From an uncultured Bosea sp. (lineage in GTDB: Bacteria > Pseudomonadota > Alphaproteobacteria > Rhizobiales > Beijerinckiaceae): a DNA stretch of 64,000 nucleotides. The translations under genes and the position numbers were made by a program. The stretch covers positions 9,231 to 73,230 of the forward strand of contig NZ_CAMFKW010000010.1 in assembly GCF_945957345.1 (NCBI RefSeq). Reading direction: 5' to 3'. Within the stretch, counting starts at the first letter, position 1; each line of letters opens with the position of its first letter. Of the stretch, positions 16,616 through 28,659 are shown in pieces. The notes beneath the pieces are model-generated. The model ran no database searches and had not been told where the DNA came from. It worked only from the letters and a program-made list of their open reading frames with translations.

Positions 16616-16729
16616 GGAAATCTCTGCAGGCTGGGCACGATCGATCGCCACAGGCTAAACTGATGCGCCCGCCGCGTCATGGCCAAACGCGACAGGGAGG
16701 CAATGCGTTCCGCTACGGCCGTCCGGCCG

Positions 16730-18298: not shown

Positions 18299-19057
18299 TC
18301 AGCCCGTCAGGATGGCGTAGACATCGCCCGAATTGGCCTCATGCGGCAGGCTGCGCAGGTAATCGCCCATCGCCTCCGCGCTTGCCGGCTCGCCGAGTTC
18401 GAGCATCTGGCTCTCGCCGATCGCGACATTGAAACGATACGGGCCGAGCGTCTCCAACAGGACGAGGCAAGCCTCGGCGACGTCGCGCTGAATCGTCGTG
18501 AACTCGAAGGAGATCACCGGCACCACCTTGGTCAGGCCGGCCAGCACATGCGCTTCGAAGCCCTCGACATCGATCTTGAGCAGCTTCGGCAGGCCGTAGC
18601 GCTGGATCAAGCGATCGAGCGTCGTGCAGGGAACCGTGATCTCATGGTCCCATATCTGCCCTTCCCAGCCCCGAGCGCCCACGGCCGCGCCGATGAAGGC
18701 GGCCGACGCGGTCGAGACGGTCGGGTTCCGACTGTTGATCCGCAGTGCGATCGAGCCCTCATGGTCGCCGCAGGCCGCCTCGATCAGCATCACCAGCGGG
18801 TCCCGCCGATGGATCAGTCGCGTGACGCGGGCCGGCCCAGGCTGCGGCTCGAGCGCGACCACGCGCGCACCCAGCCGGCGGAAGGACGAGACCCGGTCGC
18901 CGACATGGGCGCCAATATCGAAAGCGAGATCGCCCGGCGCCAGGAACGCCCCGTAGAGCCGGTCCATCGCCGCGTTGCGCTCCTTGTCGCCGTGATAGAC
19001 ACGCAGCGAGCGCGAGAGCGCCTTCACCGTCCCCTTCGGATAGGTGACGGCGTTCAT
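18299..19057 (-). CDS. FkbM-family SAM methyltransferase
   Basis: FDIGAHVG, VALEPQP and LLKIDVEGFE. Its start overlaps the opgH stop (ATGA). Confidence 0.9.
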   Translation of the reverse strand: MNAVTYPKGTVKALSRSLRVYHGDKERNAAMDRLYGAFLAPGDLAFDIGAHVGDRVSSFRRLGARVVALEPQPGPARVTRLIHRRDPLVMLIEAACGDHEGSIALRINSRNPTVSTASAAFIGAAVGARGWEGQIWDHEITVPCTTLDRLIQRYGLPKLLKIDVEGFEAHVLAGLTKVVPVISFEFTTIQRDVAEACLVLLETLGPYRFNVAIGESQMLELGEPASAEAMGDYLRSLPHEANSGDVYAILTG

Positions 19058-20883
19058 GCCGCCTCAATGTCGCGGATCGCGGCCAACACCGGCGGCAGGT
19101 CGAAATCTTCGGGGACGCCGCAGAGCCCACGCCGCGCCAGCCAGGCGCCGCAAGCCGGCGCCGCCGTCAGCATGGCGAAGGGGATCGCCAGCACATAGCC
19201 CGCGGTCAAAGGCAGCGACCAGATCAGCACCGCAGGCGCCATCAGGCCCAGCGTGACGAACAGATAGGCCCCGAACAGCAGATGCGGCCACAGGCCCGCG
19301 AAGGCCGTCGCGAACGACAGGGCATGCACATCGCGCGCCTGCCCGTTCCAGCCGATCCTCGCCCGCCCGAAGGCGAGCCCGATCATGAACAGCGTGGTCC
19401 GAAAGCTCGACACGGCGCCTTGCAGGAACGAGAAGGCGAGTTCGATCGCAGCCGAGGTCAGGAAGCGCGCCTTGCCGCCATAGCGAACGACGCCACCCCG
19501 CGTGAGCAGGATGTCGGCGAAACCGGCGAGCTTGGGCGAGAGATACATCGCGAGGAACAGTAGATAGAGCCCGGCAGCCGTCACGATCGGATAATCGGCG
19601 ATCGCCCGATCCTCGAAGACCTTCAGCGGCAAGAGCGCGATCATCAGCGTCCAGGCCGGCAGGCCGAGGAACATCAGGATCGCCCAGATCAGCTGGAAGC
19701 GGCTCATCGGCTTGAGACCAGGGATATCGAGCAGCTTGAGATATTGCAGGTTGCCGAGGCACCAGCGCAGGTCGCGCTTGGCGAATTCGAGCATGGTCGG
19801 CGGGTTCTCCTCCCAGCTTCCGCCCTCGACCGGCAGCACCCGCACCTCGTAGCCGGCGCGGCGCATCAAGGTCGCCTCGACCTGGTCATGGCTCATCACC
19901 GCCCCGCCCAGAGGCGGCCCGCCGGGCAGCACCGGCAGATGGCAGTGATCACGGAACGGCGCGATCCGCACCAGCGCGTTATGCCCCCAGAATGGCCCGC
20001 AATCGCCGCCCCACCAGGCCGAACCCATGGTGTAGGGCCGCATGCCGTGGCGCATGCCGAACTGGAAGATGCGGGCGAAGGCCGAATTGCTGGGCATGCC
20101 GACCACGAGACTCTGCAGGATTCCGAGCTTCGGATGGGCCTGCATCATTCGGGCCATGCCGAGGATCGTCTCGCCTGCCATCACGCTGTCGGCATCGAGC
20201 GGCAACATCAATTCGTAACGCTCGCCCCAGTGTTCGCAGAAATCGCGGAGATTGCCGGCCTTGAAACCGGCATTGTCGCTGCGGCGGCGATAGGTCACCC
20301 GCGCCGGCTCGCCGATCTCGCGCGCCCAGGCTTCGGCCAGCCTTTTCTCGGCTTCGGCAACCGCCGGATCATTGCTGTCCGACAGCACGAAATAATCAAA
20401 CCAGACACCCGCGCCGGTCGCATCGAAGCTGTTCTTGACCACCTTGAGCCGGCGGAAGGCCCGCGCCGGGTCCTCATTGCGCAAAGTCATCAGCACGGCG
20501 GTGCGCAGGGTAAGCGGCGTCTCCTGCTCCCTGGCGGCGGCGAAGGGCGCGACCTCGGCAAGCCCTTCCGTCTTGCCGTGGAGGAGCCAGAGCCCGATCG
20601 CAGCGTTCCAGAAGCCGAGCACGGTCCAGGGCGCGCCGAACAGGAAGGCGATGAAGATCGCGACATCCGCGACACTCCAGCCGCCCGCACCGAGCACGCG
20701 CGCCAATCCGGCGAGCAGCAGGGCCAGGGTGACGAGATTCATGGCGAGGACAAGGAACCGCCGGCGGCGCAGCACCGTTTCCGCTTGCAGCCCGGCCGGG
20801 GTCAGGCCGTTCGGCCCGGCCTCTTGCGTCGCCCGCCGGAACGTGGTCGGAGCGGGACGCTGGTTCATGGCGGTCTCTGTCAT
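19054..20883 (-). CDS. opgH: Glucans biosynthesis glucosyltransferase OpgH/MdoH (GT2)
   Basis: RNEDP, FKAGN, LPLDADS, FWGHNALVR, SHDQVEA, WEENPP and KRDLRWCLGNLQ, with multiple TM segments. Confidence 0.88.
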   Translation of the reverse strand: MTETAMNQRPAPTTFRRATQEAGPNGLTPAGLQAETVLRRRRFLVLAMNLVTLALLLAGLARVLGAGGWSVADVAIFIAFLFGAPWTVLGFWNAAIGLWLLHGKTEGLAEVAPFAAAREQETPLTLRTAVLMTLRNEDPARAFRRLKVVKNSFDATGAGVWFDYFVLSDSNDPAVAEAEKRLAEAWAREIGEPARVTYRRRSDNAGFKAGNLRDFCEHWGERYELMLPLDADSVMAGETILGMARMMQAHPKLGILQSLVVGMPSNSAFARIFQFGMRHGMRPYTMGSAWWGGDCGPFWGHNALVRIAPFRDHCHLPVLPGGPPLGGAVMSHDQVEATLMRRAGYEVRVLPVEGGSWEENPPTMLEFAKRDLRWCLGNLQYLKLLDIPGLKPMSRFQLIWAILMFLGLPAWTLMIALLPLKVFEDRAIADYPIVTAAGLYLLFLAMYLSPKLAGFADILLTRGGVVRYGGKARFLTSAAIELAFSFLQGAVSSFRTTLFMIGLAFGRARIGWNGQARDVHALSFATAFAGLWPHLLFGAYLFVTLGLMAPAVLIWSLPLTAGYVLAIPFAMLTAAPACGAWLARRGLCGVPEDFDLPPVLAAIRDIEAA

Positions 20884-21978: not shown

Positions 21979-22380
21979 ATGTTTTCCGTCGAAGTCCGCG
22001 ACCGCATCATGATCGGCCATTCCCTGCCCGATCCCTTCTTCGGTCCGGCGCAGAACATGCACGGCGCCACCTTCGTGGTCGATGTCGCCTTCTTCCGGGA
22101 GACGCTGAACCGGCAGAACGTCGTCGTCGATATCGGCGCGGCGCTCGACACCCTCGCTGAGACGCTGAAGCCTTTGAAGTACCAGAACCTCGACGCTCTC
22201 CCGCAATTCGCGGGCGTGCTGACCACCACCGAATTCCTCTGCAAGCACATCTTCGACGCCATGGCGGCGGCGGCGAAATCCGGCGCGCTGGGCGCCGATG
22301 GCACAGGACTGAGCAAAATTCGCGTGACCCTTCACGAAACCGACCTCGCTCGCGCCAGCTACGAGGGCGCGCTCGCGTGA
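21979..22380 (+). CDS. 6-pyruvoyl-tetrahydropterin synthase fold (COG0720) protein, atypical subfamily
   Basis: IGHSL..FFGPAQNMHGATF and C-terminal VTLHET. It lacks the QueD CxxxHGH motif. GGGAGA RBS. Confidence 0.85.
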   Translation: MFSVEVRDRIMIGHSLPDPFFGPAQNMHGATFVVDVAFFRETLNRQNVVVDIGAALDTLAETLKPLKYQNLDALPQFAGVLTTTEFLCKHIFDAMAAAAKSGALGADGTGLSKIRVTLHETDLARASYEGALA

Positions 22381-23441
22381 GCGGCATCGTCTTCGCCATC
22401 CCCGGCGATATCGACGCGCCTACCGGCGGCTACGGCTATGACCGACGCCTCCTGCGCGAGTGGCGCGAGGCGGGCATCGAAGCCCGACACCTCGCCCTGC
22501 CCGGCTCCTTCCCCTTCCCGACGGCCGAGAATCTCGCGGCGACGGAACAGCTCCTCGCAGCGACCGCATCCGACGACACCCTGCTCGTCGACGGCCTCGC
22601 CTATGGCGCCTTCCCGGAAGCGCTCACGGCACGTTTCGCGGATCGACTGGTCGCGCTGGTGCATCATCCGCTGGCGCTGGAAACGGGCCACAGTCCGGAA
22701 GCCTCCGAGAAGCTGCGGCGGAGCGAAACGCTGGCGCTCAGCAGTGCACGCGCCGTCATCGTCACCAGCCCTGCAACGAAGCTGACGCTGGAAGCGGAAT
22801 TCGAAGTCCCCGCCAACAAGATCGCCGTCGCGATTCCCGGCACCGATTCGGCGCCGCGCGCTCAGGGGTCCGGACGCCGCGAAGCGCTGCACATGCTCGC
22901 GGTCGGCTCGCTCATTCCCCGCAAGGGATACGGCTTCCTCGTCGATGCTTTGGCGTCGATCGCGGACCGGCCCTGGACGCTGACCATCGCCGGCTCGCCC
23001 GATCACGCGCCAGCAACGGCAGCCGACTTGCGTAACAGCATCGCCCGCGCGGGCCTCGCGGACCGCATTGCGATGACGGGCGGCGTGGGAGCGGACAGGC
23101 TCGCCCAACTCTATGACGAGTCTGATCTTTTCATCATGTCGTCGCTCTACGAAGGCTACGGCATGGTGCTGACCGAGGCGCTGGCGCGCGGCCTGCCGAT
23201 CGTCACCACGCTGAGCGGCGCCGGCGCCGAGGCGCTGCCCGATGCCGCCGCCCTCAAGGTGCCACCCGGCGACGCTGCGGCACTTGCCAAGGCCCTCGCG
23301 AGGCTGATTGATGCGCCGGCAGAGCGTCGGCAGCGTGCCGATGCCGCGTGGGCCGCAGCCGGTGATCTGCCGCGTTGGAGTGAGACCGCGCGCATCGTCG
23401 CGCAGGCCTGCCTGCACGACGGCGGCCGAAAGGTGGGATAA
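22377..23441 (+). CDS. Glycosyltransferase family 4 (GT-B)
   Basis: TGGYGYDRRL, LVHHPL and SSLYEGYGMVLTEALARGLP (E-x7-E). Start overlaps the PTPS stop (GTGA). Confidence 0.9.
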   Translation: MSGIVFAIPGDIDAPTGGYGYDRRLLREWREAGIEARHLALPGSFPFPTAENLAATEQLLAATASDDTLLVDGLAYGAFPEALTARFADRLVALVHHPLALETGHSPEASEKLRRSETLALSSARAVIVTSPATKLTLEAEFEVPANKIAVAIPGTDSAPRAQGSGRREALHMLAVGSLIPRKGYGFLVDALASIADRPWTLTIAGSPDHAPATAADLRNSIARAGLADRIAMTGGVGADRLAQLYDESDLFIMSSLYEGYGMVLTEALARGLPIVTTLSGAGAEALPDAAALKVPPGDAAALAKALARLIDAPAERRQRADAAWAAAGDLPRWSETARIVAQACLHDGGRKVG

Positions 23442-24280
23442 TGGCTGGTTTCTCTCCGGAATGGCTCGCATTGCGCGAGCCGGCGGATCATGCGGCACGC
23501 AACCCGCAGGTTCTCGCGGCGGTTGGCGGCTATTTCGCCGACAAGACCTCGCTCTCGGTGCTCGATCTCGGTTGCGGTGCCGGCTCCAACCTGCGCGCGA
23601 CCTATGCGGCCCTGCCCGATCGCCAGCACTGGACGCTCGTCGATCACGATGCCGACCTGCTTGCCTTCGCCCGTGAGCGCCTTGCCGATTGGGCCGACGA
23701 GGCGCGCGAGCAGGGCGAGGAGCTCGTGCTCGCCAAGGACAGCAAGTCGATCACGGTCGACACCCGCAAGGTCGACCTGAACACCGATCTCGAATGGGTA
23801 CTGGGCTGGCAACCCGACCTCGTCACCGCTGCCGCGCTGTTCGACCTCGCCTCGAAGCGCTGGATCGAACGCTTCGTCGCGGCGCTCGCCAGCCAGCACC
23901 TGCCGCTCTACGCCGTGCTCACTCATGACGGCCGCGAAGCCTGGCTGCCGGAGCATCCGGCCGATGCCGGCATCCATGCCGCCTTCACCGGCCACCAGCA
24001 TCGCGACAAGGGCTTTGGCCCCGCCGCCGGCCCGGAGGCTACCGAGATCATGGCGGAAGCCTTCCGGAAGTCGGGCTTCGCGGTTTCGAGCGGGGACAGC
24101 AACTGGCTGCTCGACGCGAAGCGCCGCTCCTTGCAGGAAGCGCTCGCCGAAGGCATCGCTGCAGCCGTTGGCGAGACCGATCGCCTGGATGCCAGGACGA
24201 TCTCGGAATGGCTCGCGGCACGGCGCGAGGCGCAGTCCGCGATGATCGGCCATCAGGACCTCTGGGCCCGGCCGATCTAG
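23441..24280 (+). CDS. Class I SAM-dependent methyltransferase
   Basis: WLALREPADHAAR and VLDLGCGAGSN. Start overlaps the GT stop (TAATG). Confidence 0.85.
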   Translation: MAGFSPEWLALREPADHAARNPQVLAAVGGYFADKTSLSVLDLGCGAGSNLRATYAALPDRQHWTLVDHDADLLAFARERLADWADEAREQGEELVLAKDSKSITVDTRKVDLNTDLEWVLGWQPDLVTAAALFDLASKRWIERFVAALASQHLPLYAVLTHDGREAWLPEHPADAGIHAAFTGHQHRDKGFGPAAGPEATEIMAEAFRKSGFAVSSGDSNWLLDAKRRSLQEALAEGIAAAVGETDRLDARTISEWLAARREAQSAMIGHQDLWARPI

Positions 24281-24287
24281 GAAAGCG

Positions 24288-24851
24288 CTACTTCGCCCAA
24301 GGCAGCATCCGCCGCATCACGCCGTCTTTGAGGATCAGGTAGTGGTGCAGCGCCGCGCCGATATGCACGAGCGCAAGCGCGCCGGTCGCCAACGCAAGCT
24401 TGCCATGGATGGAGAGCACCCGCTTGGCCGCCTCTTCGTTGGGCTTGGCCAGCGCCGGCAGGTCGAACAGGTCGAAGATCGTCAGCGCCGGAAACAGCGA
24501 CACCCCGATCCAGCCCAGCAGCGGCACGACGATGAGCAGCCCATAGAGCAGCCAATGCACGAGATGCGAGGCCGCCTTCTGCCACCAGGCCAGCGTCGGC
24601 TCGTCCGGCGGCGCGCCGTGCACGAGCCGATAGGCGAGCCGTCCGACCATCAGCCAAAGCAGCAGAAACCCGGTGAGCTTATGCGCGCTGTAGAGCCCGT
24701 TGGTCAGCCCGTCCCAGATATCTAGCACATTGCCGCGATAGCTCATCGTAAGGCCGACCGGGATCATCACCAGAACCGCAGCCACCGCGATCCAATGCAA
24801 CGTCCGGGCGACCGGGCTGTAGGCGCGGGTTGCCGGCATTTCGCCCTGCAT
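24288..24851 (-). CDS. Cytochrome b561 (di-haem cytochrome b)
   Basis: RTLHW, AHKLTG, SHLVHWLLY, HGKLA and HIGAALHHY, with four TM helices. Confidence 0.88.
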   Translation of the reverse strand: MQGEMPATRAYSPVARTLHWIAVAAVLVMIPVGLTMSYRGNVLDIWDGLTNGLYSAHKLTGFLLLWLMVGRLAYRLVHGAPPDEPTLAWWQKAASHLVHWLLYGLLIVVPLLGWIGVSLFPALTIFDLFDLPALAKPNEEAAKRVLSIHGKLALATGALALVHIGAALHHYLILKDGVMRRMLPWAK

Positions 24852-24916: not shown

Positions 24917-24941
24917 GACGGCGAGACGCTCCGGAAGTTCC
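24917..24941 (-). promoter_or_regulatory. Candidate sigma-EcfG (general stress response) promoter for cytochrome b561
   Basis: Minus strand reads GGAAC-N16-CGTC; the consensus is GGAAC-N16/17-CGTT. Confidence 0.45.
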
Positions 24942-24986: not shown

Positions 24987-25012
24987 GGAACCTGCACTGT
25001 CCCGGCCACGTT
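24987..25012 (+). promoter_or_regulatory. Sigma-EcfG-type promoter upstream of GTP cyclohydrolase II
   Basis: GGAAC-CTGCACTGTCCCGGCCA-CGTT is an exact GGAAC-N17-CGTT match. Confidence 0.65.
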
Positions 25013-25106: not shown

Positions 25107-26234
25107 ATGCCTGAGTCGCGTACGCTCTTCGGCCCATCCCTCCAGACGGATCTCGTGAAGGTCGAACGCGCGATCGCCGAGTTTCGCGCTGGTCGGCCCG
25201 TGCTGCTTCGCGATGGCGAGCGGCTGGCGCTCGCCCTCTCCGCAGAGCTGGCCGACGCTGAACTCGCGCACCGCTTCGACACACTCGCGCAGGGGCGCGG
25301 TCATCTCGTGCTCAGCGCCGCACGTCTGCGCCGCCTCGGCGCCAAGGGGCGCCTTGAGACCGGCATCTTCGCCTTGCCGACCATCGACACCGCCCGCATC
25401 GAAACGCTCGCGCTCAAGATCGACGGCCGTATGGACGCACCCGTCGCCCCGGCTTCAGCGCTGGATGAGGCTGCGCTGGAACTGGCGCGGCTGTCGCTCG
25501 TGCTGCCTGCGGTGATCCTCGTGTCGGTGAGTGCCGAGGCGGTCGCGAACGAGCCGCTCGTCGAGGTCGTCATCGCCGCCGTGAACGGCTACCGCGCCGA
25601 GCAGGCCGCGACGCTCAAGATCGTCGGCCGTGCGCCGGTGCCGCTCGAGGGCGCGCCCGACACCGAGTTCGTCGTCTTCCGCGGCGGCGAAGGCCTGCGC
25701 GACCAGGTCGCGATCATCGTCGGCAAGCCCGATCTGGCGGCGGCCGTGCCTGTGCGCCTGCATTCGGCCTGCCTGACGGGGGATCTCTTCGGCTCGCTGA
25801 AATGCGATTGCGGCGATCAGCTCCGCGAGACCGTGCAGTGGATGGCAGAGAACGAGGGCGGCGTCCTGCTCTATCTGGACCAGGAAGGCCGCGGCAACGG
25901 CATCTCCAACAAGATGCGGGCCTACAAGCTGCAGAGCCAGGGCTGGGACACCTACGATGCCGACGAGGTGCTCGGTTTCGATCTCGACCAGCGCCATTTC
26001 GACTTCGCCGCGACCATGCTGACGCAACTCGGCGTCTCCCGCGTTGTCGCGCTGACCAACAACCCGCAGAAGATCGGTGCGATCGAGGCAGCAGGTCTCG
26101 AGGTCGCCGCGACCCAGCGCGTGCTCGGTCGTCCGAACGCGCATAATGTCCGCTATCTCGCCTCCAAGCGCGACCGTGCCGGGCATTTCATCGACATGGA
26201 CGCGCTGATGGCGCGCGCCGCGCCGACGGATTGA
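25107..26234 (+). CDS. ribA: GTP cyclohydrolase II with degenerate RibB-like N-terminal domain
   Basis: Zn motif HSACLTGDLFGSLKCDCGDQL, DQEGRGNG, KMRAYKLQ and LTNNPQK. N-terminus ERAIAEFRAGRPVLL is RibB-like. Confidence 0.88.
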   Translation: MPESRTLFGPSLQTDLVKVERAIAEFRAGRPVLLRDGERLALALSAELADAELAHRFDTLAQGRGHLVLSAARLRRLGAKGRLETGIFALPTIDTARIETLALKIDGRMDAPVAPASALDEAALELARLSLVLPAVILVSVSAEAVANEPLVEVVIAAVNGYRAEQAATLKIVGRAPVPLEGAPDTEFVVFRGGEGLRDQVAIIVGKPDLAAAVPVRLHSACLTGDLFGSLKCDCGDQLRETVQWMAENEGGVLLYLDQEGRGNGISNKMRAYKLQSQGWDTYDADEVLGFDLDQRHFDFAATMLTQLGVSRVVALTNNPQKIGAIEAAGLEVAATQRVLGRPNAHNVRYLASKRDRAGHFIDMDALMARAAPTD

Positions 26235-26265: not shown

Positions 26266-28659
26266 ATGCCCGAGCCCGACAAGACCCTGCTCGACAGTCC
26301 GGGACGCTGGCCGCTCGCCAGCGTCTGCGCGATCGTGTTCATCGCCTGGCTCGCCTTGTCCTGGCCCTGGCTGTCGGGCACCGTCACCATTCCCTGGGAC
26401 GCCAAAGCGCATTTCCATCCGCAGCTCCAGTTCCTCGCCGATGCCTGGCACAAGGGCCTCTCGCCCTTCTGGACGCCCTATGTCTTTTCCGGTTCGCCGC
26501 AAGTCGCCGATCCGCAATCTCTAATCTTCTCGCCCTCCTTCGCCTTGATCGCCGCGCTGAACCCCGCTCCCGATTTCCGCTGGAGCGACGGCGCCCTGCT
26601 CGGCACCTTGCTGCTCGGCGCACTCGCGATCGTCGTGATCTTCCGCGACCGCGGCTGGCATCCGGCCGGTGCCGTCGTCGCCGCCCTCTCCTTCGCTTTC
26701 GGCGCGGCCGCAGCCTGGCGCATCCAGCATGTCGGGCAGGTCCTGAGCCTCAGCTATTTCGCGATCACGCTGTTCCTGCTCTCGCGGGCGCTGGAACGCG
26801 GCTCGATCGGCTATGGCTTCGCCGCCGGCATCATCTCAGGCTTCATGGTTCTGGGCCGTGATCAGGTCGCGCTTCTTGGCGTCTATGTGCTCGCCGGCCT
26901 CACCATCACCGCGATCCTGATGGCGCAAAGCCCTTGGCGCGCTTTCCGCGCCAGCCTGCCGCCGCTCATCGCCGGCACGGTCGGCGCCATTCTGGTTGCT
27001 ACGATCCCGATCCTGCTGACCGCCTTCATCGCGCAGGAATCGAACCGTCCCGCCATCGATTTCGTCGAGGCCGGCAAGGGCTCGCTCCACCCGGCGGCCC
27101 TGCTGACCGGGCTCTTCGCCAATCTCTATGGCGCGGCCGGCCCGCTCGCCGATTTCTGGGGTGCACCGAGCCCGGCCTGGGAAGCGCGCTTCGGCCCGCT
27201 CAGCCTCTTCCTCGCCCGCAACATGAGCCAGCTCTATCTCGGCCTGCTGCCGATGGGCCTGATCCTCACCATCGGCTTCGTCCGCGGCGCGCTCTGGCGA
27301 CGCGAGATCGTCCCACTCACCGTCGCGGCGATCGTCGTCCTGCTCTTCGCGCTCGGCCGCTATACGCCGGCCTTCAGGGTGCTGTTCGAGCTGCCCGGCA
27401 TCAGCTTCTACCGCCGCCCGGCCGACGCTCTCTTCATTCTCGGCGCCCTGCTCGCCCTGCTCGGCGGCTACCTGACCCATCTCGTCATGACGGGAGCCGC
27501 TCCGAAGGCGCGACCCTGGCAGATCGCGCTCGAGGCCCTGATCTTCATCGGCGCGCTCGCGCTTGCGCTCTGGCTGGCCTGGACGGTCGGGCGCATCCCT
27601 GTCGCGATCATGCCCCTCGTCATGGCCGCGCTATGCGGAATGCTCTCGCTCGGTAGCCTCGTCGCCGCTCACGGCCTGGCGAAGCGGGGCTCCGTGCTCG
27701 CCGCGACCTTGATTCTCGCCGCGACGCTGACCATCGACCTCGCGGTCAATAACGGCCCGAGCGAGTCCACCGCCCTGCCCGCGCAAACCTATGATGTGCT
27801 GCGCAAGGACAGCACCAACGACACCATCGCCCTTTTGAAGCGCGAGACGGCCCGCACCATGGCGCCTGATCGGCGCGACCGCATCGAACTCGCCGGCATC
27901 GGCTTCCACTGGCCCAATGCCAGCCTCGTCCACGATCTCGACAACACGCTGGGTTACAACCCGCTCCGGCTCGGCCTCTACACTAAGGCGACCGGCGCCG
28001 GTGACCATGTCGCCCTGCCCGACCAGCGCACCTTCTCCCCGCTGATGCCGGGCTATCGCTCGTTGCTCGCCGACATGCTCGGCCTGCGCTTCATCGCGAC
28101 CGGCGTCCCCGTCGAGGAGATCGACAAGCGCCTCAAGCCCGGCGACCTCAAGCAGATCGCCCGCACCAAGGACGCCTTCGTCTACGAGAACCCGCGCGCC
28201 CTGCCCCGTGTGCTGCTCGTCCCGCAGGCGCAGACGGCCGATTTCGATGCGATCCTGGCAAGCGGGCAATGGCCCCAGGGCTTCGACCCCACCCGGACCG
28301 CGCTGCTGGACCACGCCGTACCTCCGCCTCTCCCGAGCCCGGCCCTGCCGCTGCTGGACCGGGGCGGCCGCGAGCTACCCGGGTCGGCCCGGATCGTCGA
28401 CTACGGCACGACGCAGGTCCTGCTCGAAGCCGATGCGCCGCGCGGCGGCTATCTCGTGCTCAACGATGTCTGGCACCATTGGTGGCAGGTCGAGATCGAC
28501 GGCCAGCCCGCCGAATTGCTGCGCGCCAACGTCCTGTTCCGTGCTGTCGTCGTGCCGCCCGGCAAATCGACGGTGCGCTTCGTCTTCCGTCCGCTGGACG
28601 GGCTCTGGCACGATATCGTCGCCTATCTGCGCAAGCCTCAGGCAAGGCAGCCGGGCTAG
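26266..28659 (+). CDS. YfhO-like polytopic membrane protein (putative GT-C fold glycosyltransferase)
   Basis: More than 10 TM segments; PFWTPYVFSGSPQVADPQSLIFSP loop; C-terminal GYLVLNDVWHHWWQVEIDG...ANVLFRAV typical of YfhO-type proteins. Confidence 0.65.
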   Translation: MPEPDKTLLDSPGRWPLASVCAIVFIAWLALSWPWLSGTVTIPWDAKAHFHPQLQFLADAWHKGLSPFWTPYVFSGSPQVADPQSLIFSPSFALIAALNPAPDFRWSDGALLGTLLLGALAIVVIFRDRGWHPAGAVVAALSFAFGAAAAWRIQHVGQVLSLSYFAITLFLLSRALERGSIGYGFAAGIISGFMVLGRDQVALLGVYVLAGLTITAILMAQSPWRAFRASLPPLIAGTVGAILVATIPILLTAFIAQESNRPAIDFVEAGKGSLHPAALLTGLFANLYGAAGPLADFWGAPSPAWEARFGPLSLFLARNMSQLYLGLLPMGLILTIGFVRGALWRREIVPLTVAAIVVLLFALGRYTPAFRVLFELPGISFYRRPADALFILGALLALLGGYLTHLVMTGAAPKARPWQIALEALIFIGALALALWLAWTVGRIPVAIMPLVMAALCGMLSLGSLVAAHGLAKRGSVLAATLILAATLTIDLAVNNGPSESTALPAQTYDVLRKDSTNDTIALLKRETARTMAPDRRDRIELAGIGFHWPNASLVHDLDNTLGYNPLRLGLYTKATGAGDHVALPDQRTFSPLMPGYRSLLADMLGLRFIATGVPVEEIDKRLKPGDLKQIARTKDAFVYENPRALPRVLLVPQAQTADFDAILASGQWPQGFDPTRTALLDHAVPPPLPSPALPLLDRGGRELPGSARIVDYGTTQVLLEADAPRGGYLVLNDVWHHWWQVEIDGQPAELLRANVLFRAVVVPPGKSTVRFVFRPLDGLWHDIVAYLRKPQARQPG

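Follow-up and report, generated by a model that had tools for sequence, protein, structure and literature searches.

The window analyzed here is a stretch of 64,000 nucleotides from an uncultured Bosea sp. (contig NZ_CAMFKW010000010.1, positions 9,231 to 73,230 of the forward strand). It carries a gene for a small protein related to the 6-pyruvoyltetrahydropterin synthases (PTPS) and to QueD, which we assign by its sequence to the PTPS-IV subfamily of COG0720. The gene belongs to a core operon that consists, in this order, of a dehydrogenase of the medium-chain dehydrogenase/reductase (MDR) superfamily, the PTPS-IV protein, a family 4 glycosyltransferase (GT4) and an S-adenosylmethionine (SAM)-dependent methyltransferase. 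A PRK08815-type paralog of GTP cyclohydrolase II is encoded 2.7 kb downstream of the PTPS-IV gene (Table 1).

Fold and active-site residues of the PTPS-IV protein

The open reading frame (ORF) of the PTPS-IV gene is uninterrupted over 133 codons and has a Shine-Dalgarno sequence, GGGAG, upstream, and its stop codon and the GTG start codon of the following gene overlap in GTGA. The PTPS family model PF01242 matched the protein with 72.3 bits (cut-off 22.4), covering model positions 2-120 of 121, and the NCBIfam equivalog model for QueD, TIGR03367, reached 30.9 bits, which is below its cut-off of 89.25. The best match among solved structures was 3D7J, with an E value of 6.5e-38 and residues 1-132 aligned. 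An AlphaFold2 model of the protein had a predicted local distance difference test (pLDDT) score of 92.8, and in a Foldseek search it gave a template modeling (TM) score of 0.91 and 54% identity to 3D7J. The PTPS of human, rat and C. elegans came next, together with E. coli QueD, at TM scores of about 0.7. This placement agrees with a T-fold, which consists of a four-stranded sheet with two helices.

To map the active site, the protein was aligned with the canonical QueD of a relative from the same order. In the signature at residues 20-32, FFGPAQNMHGATF, residues 21-25 are FGPAQ and are followed by NMHGAT. The position of the catalytic Cys of QueD and PTPS is occupied by Ala24, the HGH triplet corresponds to H28-G29-A30, and the Asp-His relay corresponds to K67-Y68. 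The first zinc His is retained as H14, as are the Thr-Thr-Glu ring anchor (T83/T84/E85) and the C-terminal Glu (E120). The only Cys of the protein, C88, is located in a column that is not conserved; just 37 of 120 profile matches contain any Cys at all.

Like QueD (PTPS-I; E. coli 4NTK, 3QN0), the 6-carboxytetrahydropterin synthase, the window protein has the T-fold and keeps both ring-binding Glu residues, and of the His residues it shares the first zinc ligand and the first one of HGH. Unlike QueD, it has no CxxxHGH motif, its third zinc His is an Ala, and its only Cys is not conserved. The fold and the Thr-Thr-Glu anchor are also those of the mammalian-type PTPS, or PTPS-II (rat 1B66, human 3I2B), but CxxxxxHGH is missing, the zinc site is incomplete and the identity is 24-25%. 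With PTPS-III the superfamily is common, whereas the ExxHGH motif is missing from the window protein and was not found in the motif census of its homologues.

That census covered 390 homologues, comprising the 150 best representatives of 50%-identity clusters and 240 closer matches. The pattern FGPAQ..HGAT was present in all 240 closer matches and in 113 of the 150 representatives, the other 37 having variants such as FGPAA or a sequence that the pattern did not match. Neither HGH nor CxxxxxHGH was found in any of the 390. Two alignments of diverse members (29 and 30 sequences) showed the residues H14, S15, F21-G-P-A-Q25, H28-G-A-T31, D51, Y68, N70-L-D72, T84-E85 and E120 to be invariant or nearly so. 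After E120 the window protein continues with T-D (E-T-D), compared with E-S-H in most PTPS-IV members. The conserved residues sit at the canonical active-site positions of PTPS and QueD, which means that the pocket is under selection and is not decaying.

The original prediction had described a PTPS-fold protein that lacks both the catalytic Cys and the second His of HGH, has a single Cys elsewhere, and carries neither a QueD nor a PTPS active-site motif. All of this agrees with the residues described above, with the absence of the three motifs and with the QueD model score, by which the protein belongs to none of QueD, PTPS-II and PTPS-III. It had also stated, correctly, that this motif separates the subfamilies of COG0720. 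The idea that the motif itself was new did not hold, because FGPAQ has been named as the signature of PTPS-IV (PMC5445326, citing Phillips 2012 and Zallot 2016), and the same paper reports PF00925, the GTP cyclohydrolase II family, in the PTPS-IV gene neighborhood. The window protein has the signature, homology to SCO6650 and a PF00925 gene nearby, and is thus an additional member of a known subfamily.

3D7J is the structure of SCO6650 from Streptomyces coelicolor, deposited and released in 2008 as a 6-pyruvoyltetrahydropterin synthase homolog. It resembles the window protein over the full length and carries the same FGPAQ..HGAT. The paper on this structure reportedly found no zinc and no PTPS activity, and the study is said to have been motivated by the nearby GTP cyclohydrolase II homolog SCO6655. 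SCO6655 reportedly forms a formamidopyrimidine because a Tyr is replaced by Met. Our literature searches returned nothing relevant on the SCO665x genes, on this gene combination or on a link to the general stress response.

PTPS-IV proteins are numerous. Of the 8,000 candidates that a word-indexed protein search could score, at least 7,979 were relatives, and HMMER, run exhaustively against representatives of 50%-identity clusters, gave 517 clusters at E≤1e-10. They range over actinobacteria and alpha-, beta- and gammaproteobacteria. The closest matches listed were Bosea proteins annotated as 6-pyruvoyltetrahydropterin or 6-carboxytetrahydropterin synthase, names that databases routinely and wrongly give to PTPS-IV members. 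Longer or fused homologues consisted of tandem PTPS repeats and one dehydrogenase fusion, with no informative extra domain. The fusion, in the 50%-cluster representative P0122, joins PTPS-IV to an MDR dehydrogenase. Two to four tandem PTPS-IV-like stretches per chain were observed in the metagenomic proteins P0149 (488 aa), P0153 (824 aa), P0195 (855 aa), P0172 and P0205, and such chains might mimic the trimer of a T-fold barrel. Distant low-GC homologues are encoded on contigs of about 1 kb or less, where the gene context is not visible.

The gene cluster in Bosea and other bacteria

Table 1. Genes and sequence features around the PTPS-IV gene (positions in the window).
Feature	Position	Strand	Evidence and remarks
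Conserved protein, about 420 aa	16730..18004	-	No Pfam or NCBIfam match; ORF start uncertain
FkbM-family methyltransferase	18299..19057	-	PF05050, TIGR01444; coupled to GT2 gene
OpgH/MdoH-family glycosyltransferase family 2 (GT2) glucosyltransferase	19054..20883	-	NF003963, 933 bits (cut-off 884); divergent from core operon
MDR-superfamily dehydrogenase, BchC-like, 339 aa	20923..21942	+	TIGR01202 (bchC), 56 bits; weak ADH_zinc_N; first gene of core operon
PTPS-IV subfamily COG0720 / T-fold protein, 133 aa	21979..22380	+	PF01242, 3D7J match, AlphaFold2 model
PTPS-IV signature FFGPAQNMHGATF, residues 20-32 (Cys to Ala24, third zinc His to Ala30)	22036..22074	+	Alignments, motif census
GT4 glycosyltransferase	22377..23441	+	PF13692, PF00534; start overlaps PTPS-IV stop
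Class I SAM methyltransferase	23441..24280	+	PF13649, PF08242; start overlaps GT4 stop
Cytochrome b561	24288..24851	-	PF01292; conserved alphaproteobacterial neighbor
GGAAC-N17-CGTT, EcfG-type promoter-like motif	24987..25012	+	Ahead of GTP cyclohydrolase II paralog
GTP cyclohydrolase II paralog, PRK08815-type	25108..26234	+	NF006456, 506.9 bits (cut-off 464)
Polytopic PMT_2/YfhO-like membrane protein	26266..28659	+	Weak PF13231, PF09586; downstream of GTP cyclohydrolase II

Gene neighborhoods were compared at 80 loci from reference genomes and at five annotated loci (Streptomyces, Vreelandella, Thauera, Thermomonospora and Micromonospora), and neighbors were counted at the 52 loci with full 10-kb flanks. 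The partners of PTPS-IV in the core operon were present at nearly all of these 52: GT4 at 50, the MDR dehydrogenase at 49 and the SAM methyltransferase at 48. Either an OpgH-type GT2 or a CDP-alcohol phosphatidyltransferase was found at 47 loci, the OpgH/MdoH-family GT2 being present at 40. Cytochrome b561 (26 loci), the FkbM methyltransferase (23), the protein without a recognized family (21), a RibD_C gene (17) and the PMT_2/YfhO-like membrane protein (14) were also counted. A membrane-embedded transferase almost always accompanies the core of dehydrogenase, PTPS-IV, GT4 and methyltransferase. The best matches of the dehydrogenase in the Protein Data Bank (PDB) are polyol dehydrogenases, and the best PDB relatives of GT4 are sucrose-phosphate-synthase-like proteins, MshA, BshA and PimB.

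The membrane-embedded partner depends on the lineage. It is an OpgH-type GT2 in alphaproteobacteria, and a CDP-alcohol phosphatidyltransferase together with a flippase-like protein in actinobacteria and in beta- and gammaproteobacteria. At the three actinobacterial loci the phosphatidyltransferase gene (CDP-OH_P_transf) is divergent and is followed by the dehydrogenase, PTPS-IV, GT4 and methyltransferase genes, with a flippase-like gene (LPG_synthase_TM), GTP cyclohydrolase II and a creatininase-family or RibD_C gene near the core. The set at the Thauera and Vreelandella loci is as in actinobacteria, and the Vreelandella locus has the FkbM and GT2 pair in addition.

The four-gene operon and a nearby GTP cyclohydrolase II are thus common to the Streptomyces homologue and Bosea. 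Unlike the Bosea cluster, the Streptomyces-type cluster has an added CDP-alcohol phosphatidyltransferase, flippase-like protein and creatininase-family gene, whereas the OpgH-type GT2 and FkbM methyltransferase are features of Bosea and not of Streptomyces. At E≤1e-5 this Bosea genome yielded no homologue of the CDP-alcohol phosphatidyltransferase, the flippase-like protein or the cluster RibD_C, and its creatininase-family homologues are located only away from the cluster (contigs C30, C47 and C48).

The GTP cyclohydrolase II paralog

The association with GTP cyclohydrolase II was examined in 31 related genomes. PTPS-IV was present in all 19 Bosea genomes and in one other (G019). The distance from PTPS-IV to a PRK08815-type paralog is 3-17 kb in each of the 19 Bosea genomes; in G019, a PF00925-type gene is located 5 kb from PTPS-IV. 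The 11 relatives without PTPS-IV had no full-length paralog, apart from two exceptions: a 330-bit partial match in a 69%-complete genome and a 177-bit match broken by a stop codon. At the wider scale, a GTP cyclohydrolase II gene was found within 10 kb of PTPS-IV at 26 of the 52 loci, among them loci of Streptomyces, Thermomonospora, Micromonospora, Thauera, Vreelandella and Xanthomonas. The original prediction had named the GTP cyclohydrolase II product as the plausible substrate of a new reaction. Synteny and co-occurrence support this link to GTP cyclohydrolase II; the presence of PF00925 near PTPS-IV had already been published.

Three PF00925 genes were found in this genome, and the copy in the window is the best match to the family (161.7 bits). 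The housekeeping enzyme is probably encoded by a RibBA-sized PF00925 gene, which lies on another contig. The third gene is divergent (C27:28610-29146; open frame of 451 aa, 60 bits) and is conserved across Bosea genomes. Compared with E. coli RibA (2BZ0), the window paralog retains the zinc Cys residues and the equivalents of Tyr105 (in RAYKLQ) and Arg128. With these residues in place the ordinary diaminopyrimidine product would be expected, and by its sequence the paralog looks active. In the 29 GTP cyclohydrolase II genes located within 10 kb of PTPS-IV, some of which are housekeeping-like, the Tyr is present in 27; the Streptomyces copy has Met at this position, in contrast to the Tyr of Bosea. 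The N-terminal region of the window paralog (25108-25700, about 200 aa) could be aligned only weakly, over 26 residues, with the RibB portion of M. tuberculosis RibBA.

The RibD_C protein of the Micromonospora cluster is closest to the archaeal 2,5-diamino-6-ribosylamino-pyrimidinone-5'-phosphate reductase (TIGR01508, 127.8 bits, below cut-off). No deaminase domain was found in the gene calls from the five annotated loci, which fits an intermediate that keeps its 2-amino-4-oxo face, the face recognized in PTPS and QueD by the retained Glu residues.

A promoter-like motif, GGAAC-N17-CGTT, precedes the paralog in the window. The TTG start listed for this gene, at 25011, falls inside the motif, and the real start is therefore probably the ATG at 25108. 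A match to the motif was also seen about 120 nt upstream in three more Bosea loci, two of which differ in the spacer sequence, and at -201 in one Rhabdaerophilaceae locus. The recurring sequence fits a putative EcfG-type general-stress promoter. A related sequence, GGAAC...CGTC, at about 24917-24941 on the minus strand, faces the cytochrome b561 gene. An exact GGAAC-N16-CGTT is also found at 16686-16711 on the minus strand, ahead of hydroxypyruvate-isomerase-like and glucokinase genes. Another GGAAC-N16-CGTT, at 20754-20779 on the plus strand upstream of the dehydrogenase gene, was conserved in 0 of 66 related loci and was dismissed as a chance occurrence.

Proposed role of PTPS-IV and alternative explanations

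We propose that PTPS-IV is a zinc-free T-fold enzyme which acts on a 2-amino-4-oxopyrimidine derived from GTP cyclohydrolase II, in a pathway leading to a glycosylated, methylated and envelope-directed product. We give this proposal an even chance of being right. The linked paralog would supply 2,5-diamino-6-ribosylamino-4(3H)-pyrimidinone 5'-phosphate, and the substrate of PTPS-IV would derive from this compound or from its ribityl form. PTPS-IV, presumably independent of zinc, would bind the aminopyrimidinone ring and perform an acid-base step. This step could be an Amadori-type isomerization or ring closure, comparable to what GTP cyclohydrolase I does in the latter half of its reaction, or else a side-chain reaction like that of dihydroneopterin aldolase, in which the side chain is remodeled.

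The remaining genes could then be placed in the same pathway. The BchC-like dehydrogenase may carry out an oxidation or reduction at a side-chain secondary alcohol or ketone, and GT4 may glycosylate the intermediate. A phosphorylated polyol would be expected as the acceptor, because the nearest solved relatives of GT4 (MshA, BshA and sucrose-phosphate-synthase-like proteins) glycosylate phosphorylated polyols or small acids. The SAM methyltransferase would complete the group. Finally, a membrane transferase would send the product to the envelope, this being the OpgH-type GT2 in alphaproteobacteria and the CDP-alcohol phosphatidyltransferase with the flippase-like protein elsewhere. The presence of a channel-forming OpgH-type GT2 or a CDP-alcohol phosphatidyltransferase at nearly every locus points to a membrane or extracytoplasmic destination.

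Several observations weigh against this proposal. Half of the 52 loci have no GTP cyclohydrolase II in the 10-kb neighborhood. In the window itself the paralog forms a transcription unit apart from the core operon, located behind the divergent cytochrome b561 gene and having its own promoter-like motif. The loss of both zinc and the catalytic triad would also be expected of a non-catalytic binding protein, and the reaction types suggested above are drawn by analogy from T-fold precedents. Biochemical data for any PTPS-IV member were not found in the searchable literature, and the sole functional statement in print, given as unpublished work, places PTPS-IV in F420 synthesis (PMC5041015).

This F420 role would make PTPS-IV one step of an archaeal-type route, with a GTP cyclohydrolase, a deformylase and a reductase, to the ribitylaminopyrimidine precursor of F0 and F420 or of flavin. 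Some clusters do combine GTP cyclohydrolase II with a creatininase-family gene and an archaeal-type RibD_C reductase, and the Met at the Tyr105 position of the Streptomyces enzyme would suit such a route. However, CofH/FbiC had no match in this Bosea genome, and of the 25 other genomes with PTPS-IV that were tested for co-occurrence just 5 had a match that exceeded the cut-off. The cluster creatininase that was tested scored only 32 bits on the ArfB model, and a housekeeping RibBA-like gene is present elsewhere in the genome. GT4, the methyltransferase, GT2, the CDP-alcohol phosphatidyltransferase and the flippase-like protein would all be left unexplained. A supply of F420 or flavin precursors is thus very unlikely, and the published statement cannot be a general explanation in proteobacteria. 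The protein might instead be a substitute QueD that makes 6-carboxytetrahydropterin for queuosine, given that this genome, like each of 18 other Bosea genomes of which several are closed, has exactly one PF01242 match, of PTPS-IV type, and that it also encodes QueC (with the next ORF, C15:76846-78128) and QueF (C24:73067-73306). As a genus, Bosea seems to have QueC and QueF without QueD or QueE. QueE was not found in this genome with TIGR04508 or by tblastn with QueE ORFs of same-order relatives, so the product of QueD would have no consumer in Bosea. The Cys, the third zinc His and the Asp-His relay are all lost, the QueD model stays far below its cut-off, the operon context contains no queuosine genes, and in G019 PTPS-IV occurs alongside a normal QueD. 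The ORF adjoining QueC resembles a YhhQ-type preQ0 transporter; this arrangement suggests salvage of a 7-deazaguanine precursor and not its synthesis from GTP. Together, these data leave the substitution of QueD hardly credible. The canonical QueD of same-order relatives (loci L010-L015) reads HPNSR[VI]HGH and has a C-terminal CxEGC; it lacks a Cys at the position four residues ahead of HGH and looks like the displaced-cysteine variant described for COG0720. Replacement of FolB, the role of the 6-hydroxymethyl-dihydropterin-forming PTPS-III, also fits poorly here, because a normal FolB is present in the genome (114.5 bits) and no replacement is needed.

Two further explanations keep the ring-binding function of the fold. 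The ligand could come from GTP cyclohydrolase I. PTPS-IV would then bind dihydroneopterin triphosphate or a derivative of neopterin or biopterin, the product of the operon would be a pterin glycoside as in cyanobacteria, GT4 would be a pteridine glycosyltransferase, and the nearby GTP cyclohydrolase II would be incidental. The pteridine glycosyltransferases of cyanobacteria are members of glycosyltransferase group 1. The T-fold with its pterin-anchoring Thr-Thr-Glu and Glu, the GT4 and methyltransferase genes within the operon, and the loci whose 10-kb flanks are free of GTP cyclohydrolase II are all consistent with this explanation. We nevertheless consider it unlikely, as the GTP cyclohydrolase II paralog and PTPS-IV occur together in 20 of 20 related genomes, and GTP cyclohydrolase I was neither found in the gene calls of the five annotated loci nor reported for the PTPS-IV neighborhood in PMC5445326. 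The PTPS reaction is also one that SCO6650 reportedly does not catalyze. Alternatively, PTPS-IV could be a non-catalytic T-fold protein that binds or carries a pterin- or pyrimidine-type ligand or provides the dehydrogenase or GT4 with a scaffold. In favor of this, PTPS-IV has retained its ring-binding residues but has lost the catalytic Cys, the Asp-His relay and the third zinc His, and the dehydrogenase fusion of P0122 would suit a scaffold. On the other hand, a new set of invariant or nearly invariant polar residues (H14, S15, Q25, H28, T31, D51, Y68, N70 and D72) occupies the old active site, and the motif is stable from actinobacteria to proteobacteria, seemingly beyond what holding a ligand would need. 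This explanation, too, seems improbable to us.

Returning to the enzymatic proposal, a more specific form of it can be put forward tentatively. The clusters may represent a widespread and undescribed pathway in which PTPS-IV catalyzes a step that converts the GTP cyclohydrolase II product into a glycosylated and methylated pterin- or aminopyrimidine-type head group. The head group would be carried on a membrane lipid in actinobacteria and beta- and gammaproteobacteria, or on an exported glucan in alphaproteobacteria, the attachment being made by the CDP-alcohol phosphatidyltransferase and flippase-like protein (lipid) or by the OpgH-type GT2 (glucan).

The interest of PTPS-IV lies in the pathway of its cluster, for which a concrete gene set is now defined, and in the comparative evidence that a role as QueD or in F420 synthesis fits poorly in proteobacteria. 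If the head-group pathway is real, its product would be a new class of GTP-derived envelope constituent, which in Bosea may be tied to the general stress response.

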